The position numbers were made by a program, and so were the translations under genes. 64,000 nucleotides of DNA from Schmidtea polychroa (taxonomy: Eukaryota). The notes below the pieces were generated by a model. That model saw only the letters and a list, made by a program, of their open reading frames with translations. It searched no databases and was not told where the DNA came from. The stretch lies in NCBI GenBank assembly GCA_044892525.1, contig CM097887.1, positions 72,106,001 through 72,170,000 of the forward strand, in the 5' to 3' direction. This document shows positions 1 to 24,499 of the stretch, in pieces. Every line of letters begins with the position of its first letter. Position 1 is the stretch's first letter.

Positions 1-294
1 TGTTGAATAGTCCAACCGATCAGGAAGGAGGAAGATTGAGCTGTTGAATAGTGCCAGCCAGTCGTAAGATCAAGTTGTTGAATAGTCCAACCGATCAGGA
101 AGGAGGAAGATTGAGCTGTTGAATAGTGCCAGCCAGTCGTAAGATCGAGTTGTTGAATAGTCCAACCGATCAGGAAGGAGGAAGATTGAGCTGTTGAATA
201 GTGCCAGCCAGTCGTAAGATCGAGTTGCTGAATAGTCCAACCGATCAGAAGGAAGAAGATTGAGCTGTTGAATAGTGCCAGCCAGTCGTAAAGG
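1..294. repeat. Tandem array of about 4 x 75-bp units in the element leader, each unit dimeric (41+34 bp, both halves starting TGTTGAATAGT)
   Basis: Units start at 1, 76, 151 and 226 and are nearly identical; the array is cut by the window edge. Confidence 0.95.
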
Positions 295-7200: not shown

Positions 7201-10200
7201 ACAGTATAGTATATAAAACCAATTACGCAGGTATCTATATGTCGAGACAAATAATCGATAGAGCAGTGGGAAAGATAGCAACGGAGGACGTAAAACTATA
7301 CTTATATGCAAATAATAAAATGGATTTTCTATTTCATCGCGGACAAACGACCTTACAAAAAGTATATTACGATCTGATACAAAACGATTGTTCATTGAAT
7401 AAAGAAATATTGAAAACAAAGCTAGCTATTGCGATAACGCACCCAGATAACACGATGCCATCACTCCCATTACCAGATGGACACTTTGGTAGAATGGTAG
7501 GAGAAGTGATGTACACATACCAGTGTACCAAGACGTATGCACGAATGCCAGAAAAATCCATACTACCCGAAAAGAGATGTGCAAATGAATTAGAAATCCG
7601 TTATAAAGGACAAAATCGATTCGTCCAACCAGTCACTAGAATTATGAATCCAGTGGGTTTCTACCCAAATCTCTTTAACTGTTCTAATGCATACGGACCT
7701 TTATATGAAAGGCCCGATGGGAAATGGATGATGTTACCGGGAAAAACCATATCCGAGGAGCCCAAGAAATTTGGATTAATAGAACTCGCCACAGAGCTGG
7801 ATTTCAAACCTATAGACGTGTCAAACGGTGGTATGTATTCCCCAGAAGATCTAGAAACAGCACGACTTAACGTACTCTTCCCAGCCAGACGAGAATCCAT
7901 TCTGTCTAATATGGTTACAATAACTGGGGGCACAAATTATCAATCAGGCCCGAATTACGAGCTGCTATTATCGCCAGACCATTTTCAACAAGCTACGTCA
8001 AACATGATGAAAGCAATGTGGGGAAGATTCTTAGTTTTTGGACAAATGATGGCCGGGATATTAGGGATCATACTCATAATTCAGATAGTCAGAGTAATAC
8101 TAACACAAATGTTAGCTTGTTTCGATATATACAAGCGGGAAAAGAAAGTTAACTGGAAAATGATAGTAGGCTTCTTACCATTTTTAGCTAAAACCATGGT
8201 ATTACATGGTCACTCAAAAGACATTCATCGGATAAAGCGATTGATTAAAATATTAACAAAGATTAAAGGAACCGACGAAGAAGTAGGCAGACGATTCCGG
8301 AAAGTAATGTACGATGAAGCAACAAGACGACAATTGAAAAAGAATAAGCCAAAATTCTTGGACCGATTTAGAAGCCAATCATCTAACAGCGATAGTGACG
8401 ACGATGATAACGGGAACGATAAATGTCTTTATCCAAACAGAAACCCAAACGAAAAACCAATGGAAACGGCACCATATTGGGAAAAGGAAAAGACAAACAC
8501 CTGGATCGCCAATGGAAGCTATATACCACCGGATATCGTGGGACCACAAACAGCTTTGACCATGACACAAAATATGTATCCGCAATTACCGAGTCAACCC
8601 GGTATGCATTATATGCCAACACGACGTACCAAAAGTGTAGATCAAGCAGATGACGTAAGAACAATAGCAGCGATGAGTTTACCTGGAGGTCCAGCAGTAA
8701 CGGTTATGATTCAAATCAATGGTAAAGAAACCAATGCTATGATAGACACCGGAGCTAATGTATCAGCGATAGCGATTAATCAAATCCCCAGTAAACACTG
8801 GAAGGATATCGAATCAACAACAATTCACATCATAGCATGTAGTAAAGAAACAGTGGACGTGGTCGGAAGATGGTGGACTACATTGAGATACCAGGACAAC
8901 GAAATTGAAACGTATTTGGCAGTAATACCAAAACTTAGCGTACCATGCATAATCGGAACGGATTTGATGCCAGAATTGTTAAAAGAAGTCGTAATTGACT
9001 TAACAACCATGTGTTTAAAAGACAAAACCGGTAGAATATGCAAGATGAATTCAGTCATCAGATGTCCAGAAAAAATAATAGTACCAGCAAAATCACAGAT
9101 GATTTGTCAGATAAAAGTGGATACGGGTATGGAAGGAGAAGTTATCTTTGAACCAAGCAAGTCATTTGAAAAGCGACGAGAATTACCACTCGCAAGAGAA
9201 ATAATCACAATAAACCAAGAAGGAGTGATACCGCTCAACATCACGAATTTCGAAGAGGAAGACAAAATCATTTATGAGAACGAAAAATTGGGAAGATTGA
9301 CCCCAATGATGGACATAGAATTACCGAAAGTGACCAACGAGATGATCAAAGATGATGAATTATGGACAATAGATAGTATGTTGTTGACGAATGACGAAAA
9401 GAAAAAATTGCACCGATTGTTGGTAGAATATAAAGATATATTCGCCATCTCAGATTTAGACTTGGGTACCTGTGATGTTACCTTACATGCAATACCACTC
9501 ATAGACGAAACCCCAATTGCATTAAGACCATACAAGCTAGCAGAAATGCAAAAAGAAATAGCCGAAGCCGAAGTACAAAAGATGCTGGACGCAAAAGTAA
9601 TCGAACCAAGTTGCTCACCTTGGCAATTCCCAGTGGTCATGGTGAAAAAGAAAGATGGCACCCAACGATTCTGTATCGATTATCGGAAGTTAAACGCAGT
9701 GACCAAGAGAGATACCTATCCATTGCCGGACATCAATGAGATGTTATTGATGTTGCAAGGGGCAGCATATTTTACTTCTTTAGATCTAAAAAGTGGATAC
9801 TGGCAGATTAAAGTCAAAGATGAGGACAAAGAGAAAACAGCTTTCACATTGGGACGAGATCTATATCAATTCAGGAAAATGCCATTTGGACTGACCAACG
9901 CACCAGCATCATTTCAACGGTGTATGAACTTTGTCACCCATGGAATCAAACAATGTATGGTATATATTGATGATTTACTAATCTATTCAGCGACATTTGA
10001 ACAACATCTGGAAGATATCCGAAACGTATTTATTAGATTAAGACAGTGGAAACTCAAACTCAAACCATCAAAATGCGATTGGGCAAAGGAAAAAGTCACG
10101 TTTTTAGGACACATAGTGTCAGCTAAAGGAAAGGAGCCAGATCCAAGAAACATTGAGAAAATAAAAACATGTCCAGCACCGAAAACTGTCACCCAAGTTC

Positions 10201-13200
10201 AGGAATTTCTAGGATTATGCGGATACTATCGCAAATTTATCAAAAATTATGCAGGAATTGCAAAACCAATCCAGGAATTAGTAAAGAAGGATATTTCGTT
10301 CATTTGGGAAAAAGAACAACAACAGGCGTTCGAAACGCTGAGAGATAAACTAATCGAAGCACCTATCCTCGTACACCCAGATTTTAAGAAGCCATTTCTA
10401 TTGGCAACGGATGCAAGCGGGTACGCGGCAGGCGCGATTCTGGGACAATTAGACGATGAGGGAAAAGAGAGAGTAATCGGGTATTACAGTCGAACATTCA
10501 AAAAGCACGAAAAGAACTATTCGGTAACAGAACGAGAAGCATTGGCTATAATACAAGCTATCAAACACTTCCGATATTTACTATGGGGACATGAGATATG
10601 CATAACCACAGATCATCAACCATTAGTGTGGTTAGGGCAACATAAAGAAGCGTCCAGTAGACTGATGCGATGGGCCATGCAATTGCAAGAATACTCCCCA
10701 TTTATAAAATTCAAAGCGGGAAGAGCAAATGCCAACGCCGATTGTATGTCAAGATTTATTTTCCCAGATTTGGTGGATTCAGAAATGCAACGCATATGCT
10801 TAATAGTAGCGGAAGATTTGGATTTCTGTCAATTACGAAAGGACCAACAAGAGGACGCGGAATTAAAACAAATTATCGATTATGTAAAAACCGGAAAGAC
10901 AGAGGTATATGCGAAAGACCAAAAATTAAAAGAACATATGGATAAACACCGACACCGATATATTATAGAGAAAGATTGGTTGCTGATAATGGATGGGGAA
11001 AAACGATTAATGTGTATACCGGAAAACCGACGAAAAGAGTTACTAACGCAATATCACGATGGGAGATTGGGAGGACATATGTCATCGAAAAAGACGTTAG
11101 CAAGAATGAAACAGAAATATTTTTGGCCTACGTTAACTGAAGATGTAACCGAATGGGTAAAAAATTGTCTAACTTGTGCAACCAGGAAGAATACTGGATC
11201 GAAATGGAAAGCACCTTTAACGCCAATGCCAGTACCAATAGAACCAATGACAATGATATCCATGGACGTAGTTGGTCCACTACCAGAGTCAGATAAAGGA
11301 AACGTTTACATTCTAGTGATCACAGACTTTCTTACGAAATTTCCAGAAGCATTCGCGATGCCAGACCAAAAAGCTAAAACAATCGCAAAAATTTTGGTAG
11401 AAGAGATATGTTGCCGATATGGAACACCAAAACAAATCTTAACCGATCAGGGAACTAATTTTATGAGTGAGATAATGAGCGAAGTAACAAATTACTTCAA
11501 AATAGCAAAACTAAGAACATCTCCATACCACCCTCAAACCAATGGGATGACGGAAAGATTTAATGGAACACTTATACAAATGTTATCAAACTACGTTGAC
11601 CGTCACCAACGAGATTGGGACGAATATATAAACCTATGTCTTATGGCGTACAGAATGTCGATTCACGCATCAACGAAAATGAGCCCATTCAAATTAATGT
11701 ACGGAAGAGAATGTAACATGCCAATGGACCTGGAATACCAACCACCGATATCGCAGTATATGGAGATCGATGATTATGTTACGAAATTCAAGGAAAGAAT
11801 GCAAGAAATTTGGGAAACTGCGGGATTAAATATCAAGTTCTACCAGGAAAGTTATAAAGATTTACACGATCGAAAGAAAAACGTGAAGCAACATACGTTC
11901 CAAACAGGTGATTGGGTAATGATAGAAACCCCGGAATTAATTCCAGGAACCACAAAAAAGTTACAACGCAACGGAAAAGGACCATATGAGATCTTATTCG
12001 TAGGCGAAACTAATGTAAGAGTGAAATTGGTAAATAACCCCTTTACCAGACCAATATACGTAAACGTGGCACGATGCAAATCAATTCCAAAAACAGCCAC
12101 TAGTCAACCAGAAGGCCGTACATTAACCACACGTTCGCAAACCTACCGAATGAACATGATGCAACAACTCGCAGAACCGATCACTGGACGATTAGGTATC
12201 CAACCATCAGAAGCGGAAAAGATTGTAAAAGAGGTAAAAATTAAAATACCTGGATGGGCAAAAGATCGATTAGATTTCGAAATATTAGGAGGATTATTGA
12301 CGATGATCGAGAACTATGCAAATAGAGAAAGGACACACCCATTATTGCGAGTAGTCAAAAGCCAATGGCCAATATTATTTACAATAACAGATCATTACGG
12401 AGACACACCATTACACAAACTCATGAAAGTAGGTAACAACGAGCAAATACTAGAAACAATAGAAGCATTTCACGACTGCAAGCGATCAACAGAACAAACA
12501 AACAACCAAGGTTACACACCATTAATGATAGCCGCAAACAGAGGCAAAACAAAAGACATTATAACCGCATTACTCGATACCGGATCGAAAATAACTACAC
12601 AAGACCACGAGCGGAAAAACGCTCTACATCATGCTATCGGAGGGAGAAGTACCGAGGCGTTCACGTCATTGATGGAACTACTATCATATGAGGACAATCG
12701 GGAAGTTGGAAACATGTATGATGGATTGTTAACAGCGATCAAAGAAAAACTGACGACAATTACCGGAATATTAATTACATGGAGAAATCCAATTCGAAAC
12801 GATTATATGATCAACGTAAACGAAGCGTTCACGAGAGGAGAGAACACGCTGATGAGAGAAGCTATGAAAGGACATCATTTATTCGAAATCCCGAATCAAT
12901 TACTAGAACGAGGGATAAAATTCACAAATCACAAAGACGAACAGTTAACAAAAAAGCGAATCGACACATTCGAAAAATCACTATTTCAATTTACTAACCA
13001 AGTACGAAATAAATATTGGGAAACGGTAAGTGTGTTATATATGATGGACACGATGAATAACATCCGCGAGAATTACATGGATATTATCCAAATACTTACA
13101 GCAGAGGAACGAATCAATAATCCAAACGGAAAGAAAACGAAAATAAGGTATGAGAAATCCAGGGAATCAAAGTCAACAACGAACCAAACGGTCACAAACA

Positions 13201-15368
13201 ACGTCATCGAAACCAAATCAATGAGTATAGATCAAGAGGCAATAATACGCAAAGCAAAAGAAGTGTTCTTTGAGGAAATGCTAGAGCTGCCAGACGAAAT
13301 AATATTGTCCAAAATAATAAAAGCCGTACACACATACGCAAGAGATCAAACCACGGGTTTAGATATCGGGAAAATCAAAACCTTCTTGCCTCGAGCATTT
13401 ACGATGGTAACAAAGGATTCCAGAACACCCCTACAACAAGCAATACTAGCAGCGAAAGAAAATAGAGCAATAACGATCGTGAGAATCCTTGGAGAGATGG
13501 GCGAGGAAACCAACACGAAAAATGAACAAGGTGAAACCGCCATGATGTATGCAGCTATAACGAAAATACACCCAAAAACACTCCACATCCTACATCAATC
13601 AGGATCGAAACTAGACGAAAAGTCCAATGAAGGAAATTCCACCTTGGACTGGGCAACCATACAGCCAAACTTAGAAATGATCAGATTTATTTGCAAAAAT
13701 GCGACAAAAGAAGAAGTTGAAAATATGTGCAAAAACACATCTCAGTTTCAATGGAATACGGTACGGAAAAATCTAGAAGCAATGAAATTATTATTGACCT
13801 GGAGAGTACCACAAAATAATAAATATGCGATAAATGTAAACGAATTCTACGAAAACGGAGAAAATGCGATGGTAAAGAATACCCTAACTAAGGGGGGGAC
13901 GCCTAAAATTATTTTAATAGTATTAAATAGAGAAGACCTAAAATTCACGCAAAATCAGAACGAGCAACAACGAATTGGGAAACATCGTCGTATGCAATTG
14001 AGAGAGTTAGTTAAAGAATGGGATAGAAAGAGACATGCTGCAACGGGTAGAAAAGAGTTTGAATTCGAAGCAAAATTAGCAAGAAACAGAGTGCTAACAG
14101 CATATCGCAGATTATTGAACGATATAAATGTCGAGGACGACATTTTAAATGACAGCGGGGGAGATAAACACGATGACAATGATGGAAAAGGCCGGAAAGA
14201 GGATAAAGGGAAAAGAGAACCGGAAGAGGATAAACCGGAAAACAAGGATTCGGATACGAAAAGAGAGGGAAACAGCCCGGGAACTAAGACCAAAGAGGAG
14301 GAAAAACCGAATAATGGAAAACAGAGGGTATGCCTACCTTTCATTAACAAAGAAATAGAGACAAATATGATATTAATGATAATTATGCTTACCATGATAG
14401 AGTTCGTAACAGCTCATGGAGGGACGAGGACGATAAAAGAAACCAAAGAAGCGGAGAATCAAGATAGCAAAGAGGATGAACTAAAGCAAGAAAAGAAAAA
14501 GCAAGCACAAGAGCAGCAGTGGGATTTAAAGGAAGAATGGGACTTAAAGGAAAGGTGCATACTAGGAAGATGCATGTCTAGAGCGTATCAGAAACTAGTA
14601 CTGATAAATGAGGACACAGAACCAATAACAGAAGTAAGAATACAAGAAGCATACCGAAATCGAGACGGGAAGAGAATAACGAACGTCAAAGGAAAAGAGG
14701 TACACCTAGGAAAAGGTGGTGAAGTAGTAATAACGCAGATCCAACCTAGAAAAGAGCACAAAGTCTGTATTTCAAGATTAGGACCAGGCGAGAGATGCCA
14801 TCAATATGTGACGCAGCAGCAGCCGCCGAAAGAATACACGGTTTGTATCTGGAGAAACGAATCAAAAAGAGAATGCCGACGATACCCGGGGAAAAGAGGA
14901 AAGAAAAGGAAAAACCACGACGAAAAGGACGAAGGAGGAAAGCACAAGAAAACCGGCGAGGAAGCTCAGGACAACTATGTTTCGGAGGAAGAGATGGAAA
15001 AAATACAAAAGATGGCAAAGGAGGGTATGAACGAGGAAATAGCAAGAATACGGGAAATGATGAAAGGAAATGGCAAAAGAGGAAACGAGAAAGGCATAGA
15101 AGCGATATCAACATTAACGAACAAGGAGAAACCAGAGAATATAAGCGTGAAGCAGATGATGTGGATCAGTGGGATAATAATAACAGGGGCATTCCTAATC
15201 ATAACGGGGGGAACAATAAAAATAATTAAGGATAAACGACATCGCGGAGAACTAGAAATGACCCGAATCAGAAACTTCCAACATCGAGTGAAACGACCAA
15301 GTGATATCAAACAAGGACAGTGGGTGGAGGCCTGGAACGTTCAGCGCCCTCCAAACTCACGTATATAG
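4239..15368 (+). CDS. pol: 3709-aa polyprotein: UBL, Bcl-2-like, Env-like glycoprotein, aspartic protease, RT, RNase H, integrase, ankyrin repeats, membrane-anchored C-terminal segment (frame open from 4179)
   Basis: Uninterrupted ORF; MIDTGANVS (about 8740), YIDD (about 9962), TDASGYAAGAIL (about 10408), HDGRLGGH...C..C, DVVGPLP, TDQGTNF, GMTERFN, GPY (about 11980). Confidence 0.95.
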   Translation: MGMWDNHQIIRIVPMDEFRTRDVTYQKEIRDRMKTLYQKSTEIIEIHQQWLKEKELQGKITKLNTRSCRRTPWERVWNAESKEWEIRKGTFVETDIGETESESEEEEEEPPEYEEEAREQTSDDEGETDVTSESENEARHIHAMRKKEREYADMDGEEATEAREREEKERYKQLGDILAMGAKNQKRQVVALANIILKTSENIHNLRGMAKAIEEYRQYNEWYPEQLEQIIRKWRNQEWAQDTQERYHIRIKYPDKSIEELEVHPTTKIRELKKKLAYETPFHLQLFGKSLDDNADVGITPMRLEETNVLTMAETLGKPLKRKSKIIKPTQGSLSTPSPNKAPSKSNETEEVEEIILEDSDDEPGERSPLLVRWPTGAEMWTNNQPSTSYQQPTKLNIKEIIDNTTETETDEQFQKQREPTKVTPERQTDKIIDEWNEWLRNNDSSLPRTDNERNPNYENTREAGTMMEKRAKGRPKKQGEKSEFKTKEQLKQEQGQVRLEKLDKIVWDLKEAQPTIERGEKWIRELLKDMLIITNPQLRRLWQRKVASTEARQLWHTISGIIPKLIKEKTKTTKTDWDETKRVIEQLTTNANDDEHHLVVITYLMYNLMGLAARKIPNKQFANHVEMTVSIIENTIEPHIIRAGGWKRLIQAPRKNEQERSMQVRLKKLLNELEWELPMKDPASRKASINSLMMTMMIWMLCTSGATGFTIYDCDNMIMRDKYSLRDIEECRQASPNKLDIVRTKVTYHVYQESDFIRTQARECVVSKKVLAYYCGQYSYSTLILPGLDKEIVSIQREDCKELFRTGALKMHNGVTIHGQTGMIKTESVYVAGKVKSSDGSCNGGTYTIRGEVISGVVVIESYTVELKEYEAQFDANNYQMKTNPACKATENVCRTGVSTIIYEANTQKCRLQLLKSALFNEVKGEIYENENDEDGNDRVRMRNGKPMPPSPREKRLSTQKTPTALITDDPDLGMRFIKEKETTKCDSIVYKTNYAGIYMSRQIIDRAVGKIATEDVKLYLYANNKMDFLFHRGQTTLQKVYYDLIQNDCSLNKEILKTKLAIAITHPDNTMPSLPLPDGHFGRMVGEVMYTYQCTKTYARMPEKSILPEKRCANELEIRYKGQNRFVQPVTRIMNPVGFYPNLFNCSNAYGPLYERPDGKWMMLPGKTISEEPKKFGLIELATELDFKPIDVSNGGMYSPEDLETARLNVLFPARRESILSNMVTITGGTNYQSGPNYELLLSPDHFQQATSNMMKAMWGRFLVFGQMMAGILGIILIIQIVRVILTQMLACFDIYKREKKVNWKMIVGFLPFLAKTMVLHGHSKDIHRIKRLIKILTKIKGTDEEVGRRFRKVMYDEATRRQLKKNKPKFLDRFRSQSSNSDSDDDDNGNDKCLYPNRNPNEKPMETAPYWEKEKTNTWIANGSYIPPDIVGPQTALTMTQNMYPQLPSQPGMHYMPTRRTKSVDQADDVRTIAAMSLPGGPAVTVMIQINGKETNAMIDTGANVSAIAINQIPSKHWKDIESTTIHIIACSKETVDVVGRWWTTLRYQDNEIETYLAVIPKLSVPCIIGTDLMPELLKEVVIDLTTMCLKDKTGRICKMNSVIRCPEKIIVPAKSQMICQIKVDTGMEGEVIFEPSKSFEKRRELPLAREIITINQEGVIPLNITNFEEEDKIIYENEKLGRLTPMMDIELPKVTNEMIKDDELWTIDSMLLTNDEKKKLHRLLVEYKDIFAISDLDLGTCDVTLHAIPLIDETPIALRPYKLAEMQKEIAEAEVQKMLDAKVIEPSCSPWQFPVVMVKKKDGTQRFCIDYRKLNAVTKRDTYPLPDINEMLLMLQGAAYFTSLDLKSGYWQIKVKDEDKEKTAFTLGRDLYQFRKMPFGLTNAPASFQRCMNFVTHGIKQCMVYIDDLLIYSATFEQHLEDIRNVFIRLRQWKLKLKPSKCDWAKEKVTFLGHIVSAKGKEPDPRNIEKIKTCPAPKTVTQVQEFLGLCGYYRKFIKNYAGIAKPIQELVKKDISFIWEKEQQQAFETLRDKLIEAPILVHPDFKKPFLLATDASGYAAGAILGQLDDEGKERVIGYYSRTFKKHEKNYSVTEREALAIIQAIKHFRYLLWGHEICITTDHQPLVWLGQHKEASSRLMRWAMQLQEYSPFIKFKAGRANANADCMSRFIFPDLVDSEMQRICLIVAEDLDFCQLRKDQQEDAELKQIIDYVKTGKTEVYAKDQKLKEHMDKHRHRYIIEKDWLLIMDGEKRLMCIPENRRKELLTQYHDGRLGGHMSSKKTLARMKQKYFWPTLTEDVTEWVKNCLTCATRKNTGSKWKAPLTPMPVPIEPMTMISMDVVGPLPESDKGNVYILVITDFLTKFPEAFAMPDQKAKTIAKILVEEICCRYGTPKQILTDQGTNFMSEIMSEVTNYFKIAKLRTSPYHPQTNGMTERFNGTLIQMLSNYVDRHQRDWDEYINLCLMAYRMSIHASTKMSPFKLMYGRECNMPMDLEYQPPISQYMEIDDYVTKFKERMQEIWETAGLNIKFYQESYKDLHDRKKNVKQHTFQTGDWVMIETPELIPGTTKKLQRNGKGPYEILFVGETNVRVKLVNNPFTRPIYVNVARCKSIPKTATSQPEGRTLTTRSQTYRMNMMQQLAEPITGRLGIQPSEAEKIVKEVKIKIPGWAKDRLDFEILGGLLTMIENYANRERTHPLLRVVKSQWPILFTITDHYGDTPLHKLMKVGNNEQILETIEAFHDCKRSTEQTNNQGYTPLMIAANRGKTKDIITALLDTGSKITTQDHERKNALHHAIGGRSTEAFTSLMELLSYEDNREVGNMYDGLLTAIKEKLTTITGILITWRNPIRNDYMINVNEAFTRGENTLMREAMKGHHLFEIPNQLLERGIKFTNHKDEQLTKKRIDTFEKSLFQFTNQVRNKYWETVSVLYMMDTMNNIRENYMDIIQILTAEERINNPNGKKTKIRYEKSRESKSTTNQTVTNNVIETKSMSIDQEAIIRKAKEVFFEEMLELPDEIILSKIIKAVHTYARDQTTGLDIGKIKTFLPRAFTMVTKDSRTPLQQAILAAKENRAITIVRILGEMGEETNTKNEQGETAMMYAAITKIHPKTLHILHQSGSKLDEKSNEGNSTLDWATIQPNLEMIRFICKNATKEEVENMCKNTSQFQWNTVRKNLEAMKLLLTWRVPQNNKYAINVNEFYENGENAMVKNTLTKGGTPKIILIVLNREDLKFTQNQNEQQRIGKHRRMQLRELVKEWDRKRHAATGRKEFEFEAKLARNRVLTAYRRLLNDINVEDDILNDSGGDKHDDNDGKGRKEDKGKREPEEDKPENKDSDTKREGNSPGTKTKEEEKPNNGKQRVCLPFINKEIETNMILMIIMLTMIEFVTAHGGTRTIKETKEAENQDSKEDELKQEKKKQAQEQQWDLKEEWDLKERCILGRCMSRAYQKLVLINEDTEPITEVRIQEAYRNRDGKRITNVKGKEVHLGKGGEVVITQIQPRKEHKVCISRLGPGERCHQYVTQQQPPKEYTVCIWRNESKRECRRYPGKRGKKRKNHDEKDEGGKHKKTGEEAQDNYVSEEEMEKIQKMAKEGMNEEIARIREMMKGNGKRGNEKGIEAISTLTNKEKPENISVKQMMWISGIIITGAFLIITGGTIKIIKDKRHRGELEMTRIRNFQHRVKRPSDIKQGQWVEAWNVQRPPNSRI
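5780..6195 (+). other. Bcl-2-like helical domain within the polyprotein
   Basis: BH2-like ending IENTIEPHIIRAGGWKRLI preceded by a hydrophobic central helix HHLVVITYLMYNLMGL; canonical BH1 NWGR absent. Confidence 0.55.
6303..8110 (+). other. env: Env-like fusion glycoprotein domain of chuvirus/Monjiviricetes type within the polyprotein
   Basis: Internal signal peptide SLMMTMMIWMLCTSGATG then FTIYDC; motifs YSLRDIEEC, YQESDF...AREC...YYCGQYSY, GSCNGG, NDCSLNKEIL, GEVMYTYQC, CANELEI...FVQPVTRI; REKR at 7098-7109; TM FLVFGQMMAGILGIILIIQIV at about 8028-8100. Confidence 0.82.
8700..9020 (+). other. Retropepsin (aspartic protease) domain
   Basis: IQINGKETNAMIDTGANVSAI ... CIIGTDLM. Confidence 0.92.
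9480..10760 (+). other. Reverse transcriptase and RNase H domains (Gypsy type)
   Basis: SPWQFPVVMVKKKDG, YIDD, FLGH, FLLATDAS, YSVTEREALA, TDHQPL, NANADCMSR. Confidence 0.97.
11000..12080 (+). other. Integrase: HHCC zinc domain, DDE core, GPY/F module
   Basis: HDGRLGGH..KT...YFWP...CLTC; ISMDVVGPLP; ILTDQGTNF; PQTNGMTERFN; GKGPYEI. Confidence 0.96.
12380..13900 (+). other. Two ankyrin-repeat modules fused C-terminal to the integrase
   Basis: GDTPLH, GYTPLMIAA, KNALHHA (12390-12680) and RTPLQQA, GETAMMYAA, GNSTLDWA (13417-13700). Confidence 0.88.
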
Positions 15369-15528
15369 AAAGGAATATGACTGTATATAATTGTAAAAAG
15401 TAAGTATATCTTATGTATATAACAGTACTATATCTTTATATAAGCGCGGTATCAATATTATACAATAACGGGAATCATAAAATAAAATTAAATTTACATA
15501 AGAGTTGAAAAGTGTATATAAATTAGGA

Positions 15529-15888
15529 ATGGATCAAGGAAATAACGAAATGAACCACAATACAGTAACTGAAGAATTATGGAAGCAACAATGTGCCGTA
15601 TTAGCACAATTAGTGTCCAATTTGCAAGAACAAGGATTGACGATGCACAGAAACCTGATCGAGAGTATGAACAGAGGATTTAGTTATTTGAAGATAATTG
15701 AAGACCAGAGGTTAAAAATCGAACAAATGCAAAGAGAGATAGAGAGGATAACCCAATATAGCCGTCGACAGGAAATTGAAATAGACCGAATGAGGGAGGA
15801 AGCAGAACAGACAGAAATAGAAGACTGGTCGGAATGGCTAATGAATAGAGAGGAGAGCGGGCACGAAGCCGACTCTTCCGAACCCTAA
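15529..15888 (+). CDS. Accessory coiled-coil ORF of unknown function (ATG 15529; the ORF track start at 15505 is a TTG)
   Basis: Co-oriented with the element, same A-rich bias, heptad-like E/Q/R-rich sequence. Confidence 0.7.
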   Translation: MDQGNNEMNHNTVTEELWKQQCAVLAQLVSNLQEQGLTMHRNLIESMNRGFSYLKIIEDQRLKIEQMQREIERITQYSRRQEIEIDRMREEAEQTEIEDWSEWLMNREESGHEADSSEP

Positions 15889-15973
15889 ACCAAACCTAGC
15901 TTAAAATGTAAATAATTGTAAATAAAATATCGAACCTGTATCGATAAGAACTATTTGTACATATAATTATAGA

Positions 15974-17362
15974 ATGGATAAACGACAAAGAGAAGAGTTC
16001 AGAGAGATTGTCGAGCAAGTCCGAAAATCTACAACGATCAGAATACACAAACATGTTATGTGCGGAATATGTGAAAAGTTGTTAAAGGAACCTCACCAAA
16101 CGCAATGTGGATGCAGAGTATGTAAAGAATGTATCAGTGAAGCAATAAAGAATAGACCACAGAGGTGCCCGGTGTGTAAAGAGACACTAATATCGAGTTT
16201 AGAAGACACTAACGAGGATAAAGCCGCAGTGAAAGACATGTTAAACACCAACCTGGGATGCAAAAATGCCCCATGCGAATGGAAAGGAGTAATATGGAAG
16301 GTAGTACAACATATGGGAGAATGTATGTACAGAATTGGCCAGTGTGAAAGGTGCCATAAAACCATTCGAGCAAGCGAAGAAAAAGAACATCAAAGGCAGT
16401 GTGAAGAGAGATTGGAAAGATGTGAACACTGTGGAGAAATAGATACGTGGATAAATCTCACCCTCAAACATCACAATGTCCAAGAGGAGAGAGTATGTGC
16501 GGAGTTCGGTGGGGAATGCCCAAACGGATGTAACCAAGGGGAAATAATAAAGGTGGCACAGCATCTAAGGGAATGCGAAAAGAAAAGAATGACATGTGTA
16601 CTAGGTAGATGGGGTTGTCAGAAATTACTACACCGAGGTGAGTTACCACATCATTTAGTAGAAAATGCTTCAACTCACGCAGAAATGTGGTCGACTGCGT
16701 TACAAGAAAGCGAAGAGAAAGTAAAACAAATGGAGATAGAGATAACATCGTTGAAAGTGTTAGTCAAAGAACTACTAGAAGAAAGGGAAGCGTTCGAAGA
16801 AGCCCGAGCAAACATAAAGATGCAAATAAACCGAACAGAAATTAGTAATAATCAGGCCAAGGAGCTACATCAGAAAATACGGGAAATAAATCTAAATGAG
16901 ATAACCCCAACAGCACCCTACATATGGAAAATAACGGGAGTAAAAGAAAGAATACGAAAAGCAAAAACCGGAGAAGAGACAAGAATAACAAGTCCTACAT
17001 TCCATTCTTGGAAAAATGGGTACAAAATGAAAATGAAGATATATCCCAACGGGGACGGAACCGGATTAGATACGCACTTTTCGATTTTCTTTCTGTTATG
17101 TAAAGGAGAATACGACGAAATATTAGAATGGCCGTTCCAGGCAAAAATCGATATTACCCTGATGAACAACCAAAGTATACATGAGCAAAGCTTCAAAACA
17201 ACGGGGAATCAAATAGCTTACCAGAGGCCCCTCAACGAAGAAGGATCAGCAACAGGAGCACCCACGTTCATCTCACAACAAAGAGTAGAAGATATGGCGA
17301 GAAATGATACCATATATATCAAGATGACCGTGAGGAAAGAGGAGAAGGGTAGAACGGAGTAA
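15974..17362 (+). CDS. TRAF-like protein: RING, TRAF zinc fingers, coiled coil, MATH domain; intronless
   Basis: CGICEKLLKEPHQTQCGCRVCKEC...CPVC; CKNAPCEWKG...HMGEC; CPNGC...HLREC; MATH: YIWKI...SPTF...GYKMKMKIYPNGDG...HFSIFF...GEYDEILEWPF...DTIYIKMTV. Confidence 0.93.
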   Translation: MDKRQREEFREIVEQVRKSTTIRIHKHVMCGICEKLLKEPHQTQCGCRVCKECISEAIKNRPQRCPVCKETLISSLEDTNEDKAAVKDMLNTNLGCKNAPCEWKGVIWKVVQHMGECMYRIGQCERCHKTIRASEEKEHQRQCEERLERCEHCGEIDTWINLTLKHHNVQEERVCAEFGGECPNGCNQGEIIKVAQHLRECEKKRMTCVLGRWGCQKLLHRGELPHHLVENASTHAEMWSTALQESEEKVKQMEIEITSLKVLVKELLEEREAFEEARANIKMQINRTEISNNQAKELHQKIREINLNEITPTAPYIWKITGVKERIRKAKTGEETRITSPTFHSWKNGYKMKMKIYPNGDGTGLDTHFSIFFLLCKGEYDEILEWPFQAKIDITLMNNQSIHEQSFKTTGNQIAYQRPLNEEGSATGAPTFISQQRVEDMARNDTIYIKMTVRKEEKGRTE

Positions 17363-17500
17363 CCAATCGAATAATGTTGTATATAATAATCTGTATATAT
17401 CGGTGTATATAACCAATAAAATATTATATAATAATAGTATGAAAACCCTAAATACGAAAACCCAAAAATGATGCGAAAATTTCCCAAGAAACAGTAAATA

Positions 17501-18610
17501 ATGAATAAATTCCTTTTCATAATAAAAAGATTAATCGATGTCTATGATTTAGAGATGACACAAGAGAAAATAACCGAAACTGCGATAGCCCCAACCAATG
17601 TCAACAAGACACAAATTCCCCGAGAACATAATAAAAAATGGAACAAAGTAATGTTCCAACTAACTAATCTCACCCGAAATCACATCGAAGAAACTAGAGA
17701 AGATGAGAATAGTCAATACCAATGGTTAATACACAACTTAAGAGCGGAAGCAGAAGCATGCAAAAGAGCATCAAAATGGGCGTCACTAGAAAATACCCGC
17801 CAAGAAGCACACAGCCACTACTTAAAGCAGCTAGTGCAGGAAGCGAGAAAAAGACTTACCGATGAGAACACCAAGCGCGAAGCGGAAAAACAAATAGAAG
17901 ACAGGAAAATGATGCACTTAGTGGCAGAAGCGAGAAAATGGAAAAGACAAAACAGAGAAATGAAAAAAGAGATGAAAGAATTGCCCATGAGACTCGGATA
18001 TGAAAGCGAACAAGGTAAATGGGAGGAGAATTTAATAATAAAGGAAGAATTGAAAAGGTTGAGAAAGGTCGCCGCCCGAAGCCAAACCTGGCAAACAAAG
18101 GCTATGGAGTTTGAGCGACATTTGGCAATGAAGTGCGACATAAGAGAGCACGAGAATGCCGCAATGGAAGAGATGATAACCCAACAAGCGGGACGGGTTG
18201 TGGAATTAGTAAATCAGGTAGAAGAGATGAAAAGAGACCTTAATGGATTACAAGGATCGCTGGAACAAAGAAACATGGTCCTAGCGGGAAAAAATAGAAA
18301 ATTAGAAAACGAAAGGAAAATGTACACCGAAAATATTAAAAACTTAGAAATAGAAATTGAAAAATGGAAGGGCGACGAGAAAATCAAGGCCCTAGACAAA
18401 CAGATAGAGGCGAAAGACGAAGAGACAAGGTATCTCACCTATCTGCTCGACGAGGAATTGAACATCACTCGAGCTCTAAGAGACGAAATTAATGAATTGA
18501 GAGCTCAAATCCCCCAATATTACCTACCATACGACCCTATTGCGATACAGTTACATCCCGCGGTCGATAGTGATGAAGGTTATGTAGGCCAGGAGGAAAC
18601 CTTCGTATAA
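17501..18610 (+). CDS. Accessory long coiled-coil ORF of unknown function (alternative start 17555)
   Basis: 369-aa E/K/R-rich ORF, co-oriented, no recognised domain. Confidence 0.75.
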   Translation: MNKFLFIIKRLIDVYDLEMTQEKITETAIAPTNVNKTQIPREHNKKWNKVMFQLTNLTRNHIEETREDENSQYQWLIHNLRAEAEACKRASKWASLENTRQEAHSHYLKQLVQEARKRLTDENTKREAEKQIEDRKMMHLVAEARKWKRQNREMKKEMKELPMRLGYESEQGKWEENLIIKEELKRLRKVAARSQTWQTKAMEFERHLAMKCDIREHENAAMEEMITQQAGRVVELVNQVEEMKRDLNGLQGSLEQRNMVLAGKNRKLENERKMYTENIKNLEIEIEKWKGDEKIKALDKQIEAKDEETRYLTYLLDEELNITRALRDEINELRAQIPQYYLPYDPIAIQLHPAVDSDEGYVGQEETFV

Positions 18611-18785
18611 GGGTGGATGAAAAGATGAAAAACTAAAAACCGGGACGTATATCCCAAACAAAAAAAAAAAAAATTAAAGTATTGTAAAAGTATTCAAGGG
18701 ACTGTAACCCAAACTATTAAATTTTATATCAATGTATACGTATAAGTCGCACTATAGCGCACCATTAACTGTACATATTATAGAT

Positions 18786-19484
18786 ATGAAAATCGAGGAA
18801 ATGATAGAAATTATGAGCGACGTAGAAGAGGGAGAGATTGAGGCAGAAACAACAGAAACACAAACGCTAAAGGCCGAGTTACGGGAAGAGAAATACGAAA
18901 ACGGGAGATTAATAAACAAATACCTAGAGGACCGGAAAATGATAAAGGTGTTAAAGAAAGAGTGCGAAGCGTTGGGGGAAATAAAAAGAGAAACGGAAGA
19001 GGAAAATGAATGGCTACACGAACAAAGGAAGCGAGGGAAAAACTGGGAAAAGATAGCGGAAGAACTATGGAAAGAGAGGGCAAGCTTCAAAGCAAAGGAG
19101 GTAATCCAAGACTACTGGAAAACTGAGGCGAAGGAGCGCCAAACAGCTATAAATAAATTAAAACGACAACTAGAAGAAAACCAACGGGAAAGTAAAGAAA
19201 TGAGGAAGTGGGTCCGCAAATATAGAGAAATAGAAAGAAAACATCAACAACAAAATTACCTGCAAGAAAACGAACAAGATCTCCTACAAATCGAGCTAAA
19301 AAGAAACCTTGAAAAGAAAAGGGAAGAAATTAGACGCTTGGAAAAAGAAATTAGACATCTAAAGAGAGAAGCCCGTGAAAAAGACCGACAATTGGAAATG
19401 CTGCCCGAGTTAAGACACAGGGTAATTAAAGCAGAGTCCACCTTGATGAGAATCAGCGAAAATAATCCAAATCAGAACCATTAA
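18786..19484 (+). CDS. Accessory coiled-coil ORF of unknown function (ATG 18786 preferred; ORF open from 18732)
   Basis: E/K/R-rich heptads; TAG acceptor 2 nt upstream of ATG 18786. Confidence 0.75.
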   Translation: MKIEEMIEIMSDVEEGEIEAETTETQTLKAELREEKYENGRLINKYLEDRKMIKVLKKECEALGEIKRETEEENEWLHEQRKRGKNWEKIAEELWKERASFKAKEVIQDYWKTEAKERQTAINKLKRQLEENQRESKEMRKWVRKYREIERKHQQQNYLQENEQDLLQIELKRNLEKKREEIRRLEKEIRHLKREAREKDRQLEMLPELRHRVIKAESTLMRISENNPNQNH

Positions 19485-19524
19485 ATTAAGGGTCATTAAA
19501 ACCAATTGTAAATAAACATAATGA

Positions 19525-20193
19525 ATGTATAATAGTATCATGCGAGGCGAGATGATGATAACAATGATGGTATTGATGATTCTGATGGAGAACAAACAAT
19601 TAAACGCCCAACCGAAAATCGTACGAGATTACCGCAATCAAAATCAAGAACCTAAACAAGAATCCGGCAAATGCACATACCCTATGACCGTAAAAACCCA
19701 TATCATCCAAACCATTCAATCAACCCGATCCCACATCAACAACATCCAAACAATGTGTAAAAAGAACCCCATTTGTAAAATGATAAACAAACAAATCTTC
19801 GAACAAAGCCAACAGATCGACCAGTTGGAACAACAAATGCAACAAGAGGATTTTGAAAATCTTGTAGAAAAGCCAAAAACACCTCCCGAGATCAATGACA
19901 CCCATTATCTCATATATGTGGTGATCGCAGAGACCCTCCTCCTATGTCTACCAATATTCATGAAAATTTACGAAATTCGAAATAGATGTAGAGTCTCGAC
20001 ATCAATAAGAGTAACCTCGAACCAAAATCCTCAAGAAGTGCCCCTGACAAATCTTAACCCAACCCCATTCCGACCTCGAACCCCGAGTAATCAACCAATC
20101 CAGCCGAAATCTAATAGTCAGACCTATCTCAACATCAATACCCAAACCAACCAACAGCCGCCAGCAGAAGCATCAATGGTTAACAGTTCATAA
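19525..20193 (+). CDS. Accessory predicted type I membrane protein
   Basis: Hydrophobic N-terminus MMITMMVLMILME...LNA, helical ectodomain with 3 Cys, TM YLIYVVIAETLLLCLPIFM, P/N/Q-rich tail. Confidence 0.7.
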   Translation: MYNSIMRGEMMITMMVLMILMENKQLNAQPKIVRDYRNQNQEPKQESGKCTYPMTVKTHIIQTIQSTRSHINNIQTMCKKNPICKMINKQIFEQSQQIDQLEQQMQQEDFENLVEKPKTPPEINDTHYLIYVVIAETLLLCLPIFMKIYEIRNRCRVSTSIRVTSNQNPQEVPLTNLNPTPFRPRTPSNQPIQPKSNSQTYLNINTQTNQQPPAEASMVNSS

Positions 20194-20299: not shown

Positions 20300-20340
20300 A
20301 ATAAAAATTTTATCATTGTTGTATAATTTTCGTGTTCGTG

Positions 20341-20374
<34 letters not shown>
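20300..20374 (+). terminator. Poly(A) signal with GT-rich downstream element and a 29-nt T tract
   Basis: AATAAA at 20300-20305, then TTGTTGT...TTCGTGTTCGTGTT, then a T run at 20346-20374. Confidence 0.55.
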
Positions 20375-20775
20375 GAATGAATGAATTAAGTTAATTATGC
20401 AATTGCGGGACGCAATTTTGATGGGTCCCCGAGTGATTTGTTGGGCTGAGTCGAAAATTTAATCGTTGAAAAATAGGAAAGTAGGGAAGTAGAACATTAA
20501 GAAAAATAATAATAAAATAAATAAAATCAGAAATAAAATAGAATAAGATATAAGGAAAATAATAATTAAGACATAAGAATTAAAACAAAAAATAAAATTA
20601 AGAAAAGATTAAAATAGAACAAGTTGACAAATAAATAAAGAGGAATTCAAGAAATAATAAGGAAATTAAGGAAATAAATAGAAAAACATATTAAAAATAA
20701 AGAAAATAAGGAAAAAACAACCTAAAAACAAGAAAATTATATTAAATTAATAGAAATAAGCGGTACTCAACTCTG

Positions 20776-20904
20776 ATTGGTCCGCACAAATAAGAATTTG
20801 ATATATATACAACTACCAAAAACATTAAATTTACTGTTAACCCCGAGCATTTCATAGGTAAGAAAAATGTTTACTGTTACTGTTAACCCCGAGCATTTCA
20901 TAGG
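20776..20904 (+). promoter_or_regulatory. Promoter-like cluster: reverse CCAAT, TATA-like run and a 28-bp direct repeat
   Basis: ATTGG at 20776, TATATATA at 20802, TTACTGTTAACCCCGAGCATTTCATAGG at 20831-20858 and 20877-20904. Confidence 0.35.
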
Positions 20905-22978
20905 ATCGACACTACTGGCCAAGCAACCGTCATTCAGAAAACTCCACGACTATTCAAAACCAGTTCAGAGACCGAAATACCATTCATCACAATAATCGAC
21001 ATCCAACGGACCACCATTCAAACTATTTGGAACGAACAACATTGAATTTTGACTCAGCCTAAACAATAGTAAGGGGTATTTCATTTGTTTATAGATTTAT
21101 TTAAGTATTTGTAAAGCTAATAGTAATGGTAAATATTAACGATTAAACATTTTGGTTAACTCTCTTCATTTGATTCTTCATTTTAATAACTTTAACGTAT
21201 TGATGTAATTTGTATTATTTAAGTATTTCAGAATTAATAAAATATTTTTATCCAGATGTCCGTATTTTATTTGAATTAAAGATTTTATGAATTTTCATTT
21301 AACGAGTAACGTGGAGTTGAGCTACTCCATGTCATGGTATGAGGTGCCTTCGGGAGCTCAGCCGGTGGACATGGAGTATTTCAATCACGCAGCTAGATTG
21401 GGCCGAAATGTGAAGGCTTCTTCACGGGTCCTATCGCTGAAGATGCGACTAAATTATCACAAGGGGTCATGGTTAAAAGAATCGCTGGCAGACAATGATT
21501 TTCACAGAGATAGTCGTACGAATGAAGGGATTTTCAAGGATTTACACAGTGACTGAGGGCGTCGCATTCCTTTTTCTTTCGTCAAGTCGTTTTCGTAAAT
21601 CTTACCCCTATTGAAAAAGGAGATCCAGACAACGATTTAGTGAACTTCGTCAAAAATAACGACATCTCATAGTACGCTTCATCTGGAAACATGGTTTCAT
21701 CAAGTTAATTGCGACAACGTCTATTTGCCGGACTCAGTAGAACTAATTTCGTATGAAATTCCGTTATCATAGACCCAATGTCATCTAGCCTGTCCAGATT
21801 GTATGTCAGGTTACGAAAGTATCCTAAAAACTTTAACTAACTCGAAACTAGAAAAATGCGAGATTCTACGAAAACCTCTCTAATATTATAATCAGAAAGT
21901 TTTTATAGACTTAGCTATTTAAAAATTATAAACGGTAAAATATCACCAAATTTAATTAATAACATTTATCTCTACAATAAGAGCCAGGTCTTCACTGTAT
22001 ACATCCAAATTATTGAACCTGAGAGAAAATTTCGAATGGCTAAGGGCAGGTTTCATCGAGACGGCATTACATCTGAATAGGAAAATCCGAGTAGAATGAC
22101 GAGAGTAGTAATATGCTTCAGTATTTGGTAGCATTATTCCCTCGACGATCACTGAAAAGATCCAATAAATTTCCAAACGATGGTGATCATTCACACAAGT
22201 TGATAAGGGTAAAATTCCGCGATGAGAACTGACGGCAGCATAAATCATGATTCAAATAAATCACTGTGCAGAGAAAATCATATGACAGCAGGATCGATGA
22301 AATCACCGTGAAAATGGCATACACTAAGTGAGTGAGATAAGATAGTAGCCATACACGAATCTATGTGGTGAGAGCACAGAATATCAGACTAGCATACATA
22401 ATAGTCGCGACACGTGACATTCACAATAGGTCGATAATGTAATCAACTAGTTGACAGTAGTATCCGTAAATTTGGACATGTGTTATGACCGATGAGATAT
22501 CCCATTAGGGTGTTCAAGTAATGGCCGATGTAAACTCATCACATATTCTCAGACAAATGGTAGACAATATAGATAATCACATTCACTACCGAATTAAAAG
22601 TGCACTTCCAATAACAAATTTCGAATCCAAAAATATGTTGGGAATAGCGATAGTAACTTGTTTTTAATAAATTTAAATAGATAATTTATAGCAAGGTTTA
22701 GTCGCGTACTATAATGTCCCTCTACTAAAGCGTTATTATATTATTTCACCAATATTATATTTACACCCTATTAATTATTACGCCCCTCATGTATACAGTT
22801 AGATCAATAGAGAGTCAAAGTTAATAGCATGCGTCAAACCGATGGCATTTGGTTAAATAAACTGTTTCAACAAATAAGATCCGTGGTAAAACCGGATTGT
22901 AGAATAAGTTTTCCTTCTTTTCGTCAGTCAAGCATCCACGAATGGCCGTGGGTCGTATCTAATTTATTCTAAAATCGT

Positions 22979-23767
22979 ATGTTCTACATTTCATTAGTAT
23001 TATTTATAGCGAGCATGCTACCAACCACTAAATCAGCATTACGGCCGTGCTTCTCGTGCGCGGATAAGAATACGGTGATAAAGGACCTACAAACTCAGAT
23101 TGGACGTTACAAGAGGAAGATAGACGAGCTGGAGGGGACATGGTTTAGTCCCGCTCGGATGAAAGAGATCCAAAAGAAGCTCGATCGTAGCGAGCATTGC
23201 CGGGACGCGCTAATATCTGAGAGCCGGGCCCAAAGAAGTCTAATCAGAGAACAATCCGAGGCACTGCATAAGGTTTACGTGCAGGCGGCTACAACCCGAA
23301 AAATAGTGCAAATTCCCATCCGAGAGGCCGATGACATCTTTCCGCCTCATCACAACCTTTCCTCGAATCCATCTCCACCGTTCAAGAGACCGTGCCGAGA
23401 CTGCGTCGAAACCGAATTGTCCCCCAAGCGACCAGATGTTGTCATCACGGGTACCAGTAAGCCCCCCACTGCTAGTCCATCCGTATCAGTCACCCTTCTG
23501 CAAGTGGCATCTTCAAGTAAACCCAAGCGCAAACAACTCTCTCGTGCAGAGCGCAAGAAGAGACAGCGCGAGCGCGCTACTGCAAAGCCAAACATCCCAT
23601 CAATAGAGGACTCAACCAACGGTGGCAACTCTCACGTGTCCATCGACCTAACAACGGGACCCTCAGCGCGAATCATATCAGCCGCTGGCGTAAGGTGGGA
23701 AGAGAACGCTTCCGAGTTTTTTAACCTCGACGAATTATTCGCCGACACTGAATGGGAGAAACAATAA
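22979..23767 (+). CDS. 262-aa orphan ORF (N-terminal CxxC plus coiled coil, basic RKKRQRER patch, acidic C-terminus) in the candidate 3' LTR region
   Basis: Long ORF, noticeably more GC-rich than its flanks, followed by AATAAA at 23891. Confidence 0.55.
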   Translation: MFYISLVLFIASMLPTTKSALRPCFSCADKNTVIKDLQTQIGRYKRKIDELEGTWFSPARMKEIQKKLDRSEHCRDALISESRAQRSLIREQSEALHKVYVQAATTRKIVQIPIREADDIFPPHHNLSSNPSPPFKRPCRDCVETELSPKRPDVVITGTSKPPTASPSVSVTLLQVASSSKPKRKQLSRAERKKRQRERATAKPNIPSIEDSTNGGNSHVSIDLTTGPSARIISAAGVRWEENASEFFNLDELFADTEWEKQ

Positions 23768-24499
23768 AATCCCAGTGGCGGTCAGGATGAGGAACAAGGA
23801 TCCGATCTATGTTGATTATGATGTTTTCTCTTCTTTCGACAAACGTTAGTAAAGTGTACAGCTGAATCCTTGTGTCATAACATTGAAATTAATAAATCTT
23901 GTTGTCTTACACGTCTTCGTTCATGAATAATTAGACTTTAATTAAGTGGGTCGAGTAGAGAACCCGCAAGATCTAGTGAGAAATTCCCAATTTGCATTCA
24001 GCGAATCCCGATAAGCGGTTGTGTAAGGAAATGGACGTAAGCCCTTCTATCGGCAGTCGTGAATGGGAAGTCGAGGCCTCAGCAAGGAGTAGTTTTAAGG
24101 CAGAAGCTCACCTGCTTGCTGGCGTCTCGCCTGCATAGTGCAGTACCAACGTGAAGTGATTCACGGGCACTATGTTGGAAGAAAGTTATGTGGGGTTTCA
24201 CTCCAGGTTGACAAATCGGTGGCACCTTTTATTCGAGATGGACAATCAACCCTTAGACCCGTCAACATGGTAGAGTGGTCAGCCGAGGTGTAACCCCAAC
24301 AAAAGTTACAAGTCAAACCATAGATCTTTGGATAATTTTTGTTCATCGTTTCATGTCAAAGAATAATAAATCAAAATATGGAACTGCCGAAAAGAAGGAA
24401 TATGATATTCTATTTAATCGAGCTCTTTAAAAGATTAACACAATTCAAATGTTTACTAGCCAAAGTGTTGAACAATTATCCAATGTTTCAAATTCAATC

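Follow-up and report, generated by a model that had tools for sequence, protein, structure and literature searches.

A possible operon of accessory genes resolved by host splicing in a giant Burro-type retroelement of Schmidtea polychroa

The stretch of Schmidtea polychroa DNA considered here (64,000 nucleotides of contig CM097887.1, referred to below as the window) carries a giant Ty3/gypsy long terminal repeat (LTR) retroelement of the Burro type, in which the polyprotein region is followed on the same strand by five accessory open reading frames (ORFs). Each gene of this element probably gets its own mRNA by way of splicing, since signals resembling 3' splice sites precede every ORF and, in most spacers, poly(A)-like hexamers stand at a fixed distance from them. 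The reading preferred here, to which we give close to an even chance, is that a leader encoded in the LTR serves the proximal genes as well as gag-pol, and that the distal array, once cleaved at its poly(A) sites, receives caps through spliced-leader (SL) trans-splicing of the host. The wider proposal is tentative and falls somewhat short of an even chance: a retrovirus-like element would run an operon of five to six genes on the host SL machinery, its own spacer grammar (stop codon, TGTAHATA, AATAAA, ~45 nt, YAG, ATG) would admit captured genes (TRAF, IAP) as cassettes, and an LTR intron would be kept through reverse transcription by means of a 3' end that is a running copy of the 25-nt leader exon. 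A sequence-only reading of this DNA had suggested a polycistron resolved by SL trans-splicing or by alternative cis-splicing. The 3' splice-site-like signals and positioned hexamers which that suggestion needs are present in the DNA, but it missed the element's own LTR leader (20833-21074) and the TGTAHATA motif, and the donor at 15400 that it pointed to is family-specific.

The spacers were compared with those of a sister family, which was found through its BIR gene and served as a test of chance. The sister family has the same gene order, with one extra IAP gene (BIR-RING) and a MATH domain in the polyprotein. Its accessory proteins are 25-33% identical to those of the window family where they can be aligned, the last ORF is unalignable, and its spacers cannot be aligned in DNA with the window spacers; alignable DNA is limited to pol, a short gag piece, the purine tract and the non-coding block 747-841. 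The accessory array of the window is arranged as follows.

15369 to 15528, forward strand: spacer 1, with TGTAHATA at 15382, a family-specific GTAAGT at 15400, AATAAA at 15481-15486 and AG at 15525-15526
15529 to 15888, forward strand: accessory ORF of 119 amino acids (aa), no Pfam match, 32% identical to its sister-family counterpart
15889 to 15973, forward strand: spacer 2, with TGTAHATA at 15907 and 15917, AATAAA at 15921-15926 and AG at 15971-15972
15974 to 17362, forward strand: TRAF-like accessory ORF (RING and MATH domains by Pfam), 462 aa
17363 to 17554, forward strand: spacer 3, with three TGTAHATA from 17378, AATAAA at 17415, 17504 and 17521, and AG at 17551-17552
17555 to 18610, forward strand: accessory ORF of 351 aa, family not assigned, 33% identical to a sister-family ORF
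18611 to 18785, forward strand: spacer 4, with ATTAAA at 18716-18721, TGTAHATA at 18770 and AG at 18782-18783
18786 to 19484, forward strand: accessory ORF of 232 aa, 25% identical to a sister-family ORF
19485 to 19539, forward strand: spacer 5 (55 nt), with TGTAAATAAA at 19507-19516 and AG at 19534-19535
19540 to 20193, forward strand: last accessory ORF, 217 aa, with a hydrophobic N-terminus and a later hydrophobic stretch (by eye)
20300 to 20345, forward strand: terminal AATAAA followed by a U-rich stretch

The motifs on which the earlier proposal was built (AATAAA or ATTAAA, TGTA-AATAAA, the AGs and GTAAGT) all lie where it placed them, and the first exonic bases it predicted (15527, 15973, 17553, 18784 and 19536) agree with the sequence. 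Its claim that an AG acceptor lies a few nucleotides before each accessory ATG is borne out by the frequency of YAG, which is above chance, and by retention of the AG across copies. Of 15 accessory ORFs, 14 have YAG 0-5 nt before the start codon, the fifteenth having AAG; the set is made up of the five array ORFs, a RING gene upstream of gag, a gene within the LTR and eight sister-family ORFs. With a YAG background of 0.17-0.18, taken from all 561 and 738 ATGs of the two elements, and with a choice of two ATGs allowed, this gives P = 1e-6. For the ORFs that start at the first in-frame ATG, YAG occurs at 0-3 nt in 9/10 versus a background of 0.11-0.12 (P = 4e-8), and the five window sites alone give P ~1e-3 even with a choice between two candidate ATGs at three sites. 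These P values overstate independence, given the common ancestry of the two families and the incomplete independence of their orthologous ORFs.

At each of the five sites the AG is kept in 20/20 divergent copies, with TAG/CAG swaps at three sites, and a further subfamily keeps it at 5/5 sites. At the first site 17/20 copies have AAG one base later instead of TAG; AAG also closes the leader exon and the intron in two LTR types. Spacer 3 has two AGs, the first of which is the one kept in subfamily L194, and in spacer 5 the YAG is kept in subfamilies whose next ORF is just 56-64% identical in DNA. The in-frame upstream ATGs at 17501 and 18732 were rejected as start codons, being frame-shifted or stopped in other copies; the in-frame ATG at 19525 remains in frame in the subfamilies seen and is a possible alternative start for the last ORF. 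An acceptor lies ahead of every downstream start codon, and the spacers measure 55-192 nt between same-strand genes, within the 300-bp rule for flatworm operon candidates, in which cis-splicing is reported to be strongly prevented (PMC12582326).

The poly(A)-like hexamers said to precede each ORF are no more numerous than chance would make them, and it is their position relative to the AG that stands out in most spacers. The five window spacers contain 6 AATAAA versus 5.4 expected, a number reached by 457 of 1,000 shuffles of these spacers. In 7 of the 11 internal spacers of the window and sister families together, AATAAA ends 39-49 nt before the AG, which no shuffle equalled under the same best-window scan (0/1,500). 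The spacing recurs in 3/5 spacers of a related subfamily and is absent at 5/6 proximal acceptors, and the distance of the hexamer from the stop codon is not significant (94/1,500 shuffles). The positioned AATAAA of spacer 3 is the copy at 17504, which had been missed, and in L055 and L194 AATAAA replaces the ATTAAA of spacer 4 at equal distance. Cleavage takes place 10-30 nt past the hexamer (PMC5068929), which would leave ~10-40 nt before the AG. The T fraction is 0.55 after the terminal AATAAA versus 0.28-0.42 after the internal hexamers, which have no U-rich stretch.

TGTAHATA occurs 18 times in the 11 spacers versus 1.2 expected (0/1,000 shuffles). It lies on the sense strand only, is absent from the ORFs of the window and has G at position 5 once. 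In 9 of the 11 internal spacers it starts 14-23 nt past the stop codon (0/20,000 random placements for an interval chosen post hoc), and it follows 0/6 terminal ORFs. The motif matches what we take to be the Pumilio consensus and contains UGUA, the word of CFIm. UGUA is not enriched at planarian poly(A) sites (PMC5068929). TGTAHATA may assist poly(A) sites that have no downstream element, or it may protect long 3' untranslated regions. A function of TGTAAATA as a GTAAAT donor was rejected, given that TGTATATA and TGTACATA substitute for it and that +5 is never G.

One explanation of these signals is that they are chance features of A+T-rich spacers, with re-initiation on a single RNA accounting for any translation of the ORFs. 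The hexamer count is at the chance level, as this would predict, and spliced or polyadenylated retrocopies were not found. The YAG statistics given above, the restriction of swaps to TAG and CAG, the positioned hexamers and the sense-strand excess of TGTAHATA make it very improbable. The retrocopy searches of the host genome were weak tests, each with a motif of one subfamily: the end of the leader exon followed by a non-G gave 1 match, a mutated donor; the first acceptor with an altered upstream base gave 0; and spacer 2 followed by poly(A) gave 0. Retrocopies of the leader joined to distal acceptors would not be expected, since such RNAs lack the primer site. Three short copies carry deletions or LTR-piece insertions, none of them at GT-AG.

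A predicted promoter, leader and donors lie in the LTR, and a further acceptor lies ahead of gag.

20776 to 20809, forward strand: predicted LTR promoter, with a reverse CCAAT box at 20776 and a TATA box at 20802; start at ~20833
20833 to 20903, forward strand: predicted 25-nt leader exon (20833-20857) and 46-nt GT-AG intron (20858-20903)
20904 to 21074, forward strand: predicted second leader exon (165 nt, no ATG) and second donor GTAAGG at 21069
981 to 997, forward strand: strong, pyrimidine-rich 3' splice-site-like signal before gag

The layout of CCAAT box, TATA box and GTAAG (at 20858 in the window) recurs at 833 places in the host genome, with 1 in the control. Many of these LTRs are probably solo; the 3' flank of the element is found at 2/30 loci, and the array in 1/20 upstream regions fetched from diverse LTR types. 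The 25 nt that precede the donor recur at the 3' end of the 46-nt GT-AG stretch, and among the first 30 of the 833 loci this exon copy is present with at most 2 mismatches in 27/30 loci and 17/18 leader types. Matches between types number 2/240, and the types (16 compared) differ at 11.6 of 24 positions on average. The tract shared by exon and intron ends exactly at AG/GT and begins ~30 nt past the TATA box, with hypervariable bases ahead of it, and some LTRs are the exact intron-less form. Slippage was rejected as the source of the duplication, as exon 2 does not begin with the middle piece and the end of the shared tract falls precisely at AG/GT. The exon copy would be a DNA trace of cis-splicing in packaged RNA: the 25-mer would be the capped first exon, with splicing removing the intron at the packaged RNA's 5' end, and strong-stop DNA would land on the exon copy in the 3' LTR, so that the intron is restored and its end rewritten from the exon. 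In several LTR types (L043-type LTRs, e.g. L083), at the equivalent of 20904-20909, GT, often as GTAAAT, follows the mini-intron directly, where splicing would regenerate a donor as in recursive splicing.

Behind the ATG-free second exon, GTAAG lies ahead of the first ATG in 14/17 LTR types. The sister family has no duplication, but 4/4 of its LTRs have a GTRAG donor after the TATA box, and 4/4 have a conserved ATG in the leader. A conserved major donor near the predicted start site is thus present, as in retroviral alternative cis-splicing. Within the accessory ORFs GTAAG, one of seven motifs tried, is scarce (0 versus 3.4 expected and 1 versus 4.7 in the two families), as expected behind active acceptors; gag-pol is not depleted. 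No ATG occurs in the 561 nt behind the gag acceptor at 997 (65/1,000 shuffles are ATG-free), the sister family has the same gag-leader layout with 500 nt without ATG (0/1,000 shuffles), and the gag leader is ATG-free over 550-659 nt in 16/16 copies parsed. Since an AUG-ended SL at the gag acceptor would open an upstream ORF of 21-106 codons, the site suits the AUG-free LTR leader of the window family.

It is possible that the element's own two-exon leader is attached to all genes, the distal ones included, through alternative cis-splicing over a long range; the second donor, in the 5' LTR at a distance of 20.6-24.6 kb upstream, would supply it, and the mRNAs would end at the spacer hexamers or jointly at the strong terminal site at 20300. 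This is a close rival of the SL reading, although we regard it as somewhat doubtful. The exon copy with its low cross-type control, the intron-less LTRs, the donors of the LTR types and sister LTRs, the ATG-free gag leader and the chance-level AATAAA count all fit it, and an AUG-free leader suits AG-ATG offsets that shift from 1 to 2 nt among subfamilies. The major donor of foamy viruses likewise lies in R, upstream of the poly(A) signal (PMC3694450). Set against long-range cis-splicing, the DNA trace is limited to the 46-nt intron, the donor must bypass three stronger proximal acceptors in favor of weaker distal ones, each internal cut wastes the RNA downstream, and the sister-family leader carries its conserved ATG. 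In addition, with the array found in only 1/20 regions upstream of diverse LTR types, most leader types cannot be linked to arrays.

The donor at 15400 is retained in 20/20 copies and in L194, which lends some support to internal promoters with a local donor (15400 or 13026) feeding the acceptors, as in foamy viruses, or to each spacer acting as a small promoter. CCAAT-TATA-like pairs at 13015 and 17363 point the same way, as does the foamy-virus precedent (PMC12789967). The first spacer of the sister element examined has no GTAAG, however, and 0/5 of that element's CCAAT-TATA pairs are at a matching place; a spacer of 55 nt is too small for a promoter, and an AG 0-5 nt before the ATG is too near for a cap site on general grounds. 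Expression from internal promoters is unlikely.

In the preferred SL reading, a long RNA would be made from the LTR promoter, and the second LTR donor would pair with the proximal acceptors and the gag acceptor. Cleavage would take place at each positioned spacer hexamer, and the host SL would be added at the next YAG to give five distal mRNAs, with full-length genomic RNA being the fraction that escapes all processing sites. With the second donor spent on the gag acceptor, the distal acceptors would be left without a conserved cis donor, a condition for SL addition; an acceptor without an upstream donor suffices for such addition (PMC8629364), and SL genes are present in Schmidtea planarians (PMC10899757). 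Distal acceptors are pyrimidine-poorer than proximal ones (P = 0.008; 11 versus 6), and since the two sets also differ in hexamer spacing and in stop-proximal TGTAHATA they look like different classes. Internal poly(A) sites would waste nothing where the downstream piece is re-capped. We infer each of the central steps, namely splicing of the mini-intron and its restoration at first-strand transfer, pairing of the second donor, cleavage in the spacers and the host SL as the distal leader. SL and cis leaders may both be used at the same sites.

Several observations weigh against SL processing of the array. Cis-splicing of the element's own leader is the sole splicing for which the DNA holds a trace, and upstream in cis, in the LTR, there is a second donor that is conserved. 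Flatworm SLs end in AUG, which would be in frame at only 3/11 distal acceptors; at five others it would open an upstream ORF of 1-2 codons, and at three it would give an out-of-frame start with an overlap of 8, 17 and 39 codons. The harmless cases, 8/11, do not clearly exceed the one half roughly expected by chance. Acceptors of trans-spliced introns in S. mansoni are stronger, not weaker (PMC5832876), and the UUNYAG form, a consensus of SL sites in parasitic flatworms, fits 2 of the window's 5 acceptors. AATAAA is not depleted inside the ORFs, and 4/11 spacers depart from the hexamer spacing: in the window the distance is 62 nt in spacer 4 (ATTAAA) and 19 nt in spacer 5, and in the sister family the first spacer has 66 and 52 nt and the third has no hexamer. 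The fixed hexamer-AG spacing can also arise from tight packing of two independent signals.

The remainder of the element, which measures 30.0 kb in total, comprises the following features.

1559 to 15368, forward strand: gag and the env, protease, reverse transcriptase, RNase H, integrase and ankyrin polyprotein region (Pfam)
20439 to 24301, forward strand: 3' LTR, 3,863 bp, identical to the 5' LTR
23001 to 23767, forward strand: LTR gene, 250 aa, with YAG ending at 23009 and ATG at 23015 (sequence comparison)

Upstream of the window lies the 5' LTR (L011:4279-8141), which agrees with the 3' LTR at all 3,863 bp, and a 4-bp target duplication flanks the element. Since its LTRs are identical, the element is young and was inserted recently. 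Close copies are numerous in the host genome, with 40 scored of 376 candidates at 99-100% identity, and the TRAF-like ORF has 92 scored copies at 95-100% identity. Pfam places gag with zinc knuckles (CCHC) in 1559-4288 and, in 4239-15368, a viral fusion protein (env), protease, reverse transcriptase, RNase H, integrase and ankyrins, in that order. The gag/pol region of the window copy is in two frames (1559-4288 and 4239-15368) through a short deletion near 4190-4200; three other copies have extra bases there, and the two checked have a single open frame. The 115 codons before the first ATG of gag (1213-1558) are open in 15/16 copies, with 27/42 changes at third positions, and the sister family has 103-112 open codons at this place. 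Since these codons are open and change mostly synonymously, Gag is probably extended at its N-terminus from a non-AUG codon. A gag start codon supplied by the SL at TAG 1210-1212 was rejected, the phase being lost in one of three sister copies. The non-coding block 747-841, 76% identical to the sister family and 150-250 nt ahead of the gag acceptor, is a candidate packaging or splicing signal.

Between the LTR and gag there is a RING ORF (L011:8484-8969) that shares 29% identity with the RING portion at the C-terminus of the sister-family IAP (L066:5003-6178), which suggests a common origin of this RING gene and the IAP cassette. The LTR gene has a pyrimidine-rich YAG 5-9 nt ahead of its ATG in the 14 distinct contexts listed. 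For the 351-aa ORF, a protein search gave no homologue at E<=0.001 and Pfam gave no match. Tandem units of 75 bp (window 1-291 and L011:9549-10000) lie between the RING gene and gag, and their copy number differs among elements. A primer-binding-like site at L011:8149-8166, 7 nt past the LTR, presumably resembles the 3' end of tRNA-Pro, and part of it recurs in a hairpin of the LTR. This hairpin is an island at 21297-21453 that is 85-91% identical among subfamilies with unalignable flanks and folds as a long hairpin (z -4.2); a scan of 21000-24400 gave no Rfam match to it, and a similar hairpin is visible in the sister-family LTR. Two shortened copies (L157-L159 and L160-L162) have an LTR-end piece and the primer site at an internal breakpoint, which is typical of aberrant reverse transcription. 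A second family with env in the polyprotein (L063-L066, at 85.55-85.57 Mb of contig C3), with LTRs of 1.06 kb and an ORF of 3,319 aa, has no plus-strand ORF of at least 100 aa in the 5.4 kb after pol and is of no use for array comparison. Elsewhere in the window, a hAT-family transposase fragment (58323-59240, Pfam) beside an inverted repeat (59267-59734) is unrelated to the array. In the host gene UQCRB (L163:1363-1420) an intron-like stretch of ~50 nt ends 5 nt before the ATG, so that an AG beside the start codon is also found in a host gene; as a host operon for comparison this locus showed no evident downstream partner within 1.5 kb.

As a rule LTR elements carry no more than a few genes, since a single RNA has to serve as genome and as message. 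Were SL processing of the array correct, it would explain the growth of Burro elements to 30 kb and the expression of captured regulators of apoptosis and ubiquitin, and it would tie element size to a host trait; planarian stem cells are reported to benefit from one captured regulator (PMC13465017, citing Lee et al. 2026). Were long-range cis-splicing correct, the result would be a 25-kb leader system with eight acceptors in a retroelement. With either mechanism the LTR exon copy would allow the start site, and splicing in packaged RNA, to be read from DNA alone, as well as showing a way for a retroelement to retain an intron. The five junctions are each predicted with single-base precision.

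Burro elements and their accessory ORFs are already known. The element shares with planarian Burro (PMC6431247) the ~30-kb length, LTRs, CCHC gag, env between gag and protease, ankyrins, MATH/TRAF and accessory ORFs, in agreement with it in length, order and domains. The BIR (IAP) accessory gene of Burro1 is absent from the window element and present in the sister family, and the window family keeps MATH in an accessory ORF only, unlike the sister family, which also has it in the polyprotein. BCL2-like and dUTPase-like motifs in the polyprotein gave no Pfam match; the Burro review found some such motifs with HHpred, and in the parts of it drawn on here it is silent on the expression of accessory ORFs. 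A literature search of titles and abstract openings found no description of SL-resolved arrays in LTR elements, nor of an LTR intron kept through strand transfer; Lee et al. 2026 (Dev Cell, on Burro1) and the 2018 genome paper lie outside that search and could map transcripts.

The array shares with flatworm and nematode SL operons (PMC12582326, PMC8629364) same-strand genes less than 300 bp apart and a poly(A) signal shortly before an AG near the next start. Unlike those operons, its five to six genes lie inside a retroelement whose replication needs uncut RNA; the predicted gap is 10-40 nt, where S. mansoni has a median of 99 bp, the acceptors are pyrimidine-poorer, and SL addition is a prediction. 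With foamy viruses and complex retroviruses (PMC3694450, PMC12789967) it shares a major donor that lies within R, ahead of the primer site and the LTR poly(A) signal, and accessory genes that lie 3' of pol, with one between LTR and gag. It differs from foamy viruses in its two-exon leader, an intron end that copies exon 1, non-overlapping genes mostly with a positioned hexamer, and a donor-acceptor distance of 20-25 kb. The adenovirus major late unit has a multi-exon AUG-free leader, many acceptors beside start codons and internal poly(A) sites before the next acceptor. Adenovirus is a DNA virus with no need of full-length RNA, and the likeness is one of layout.

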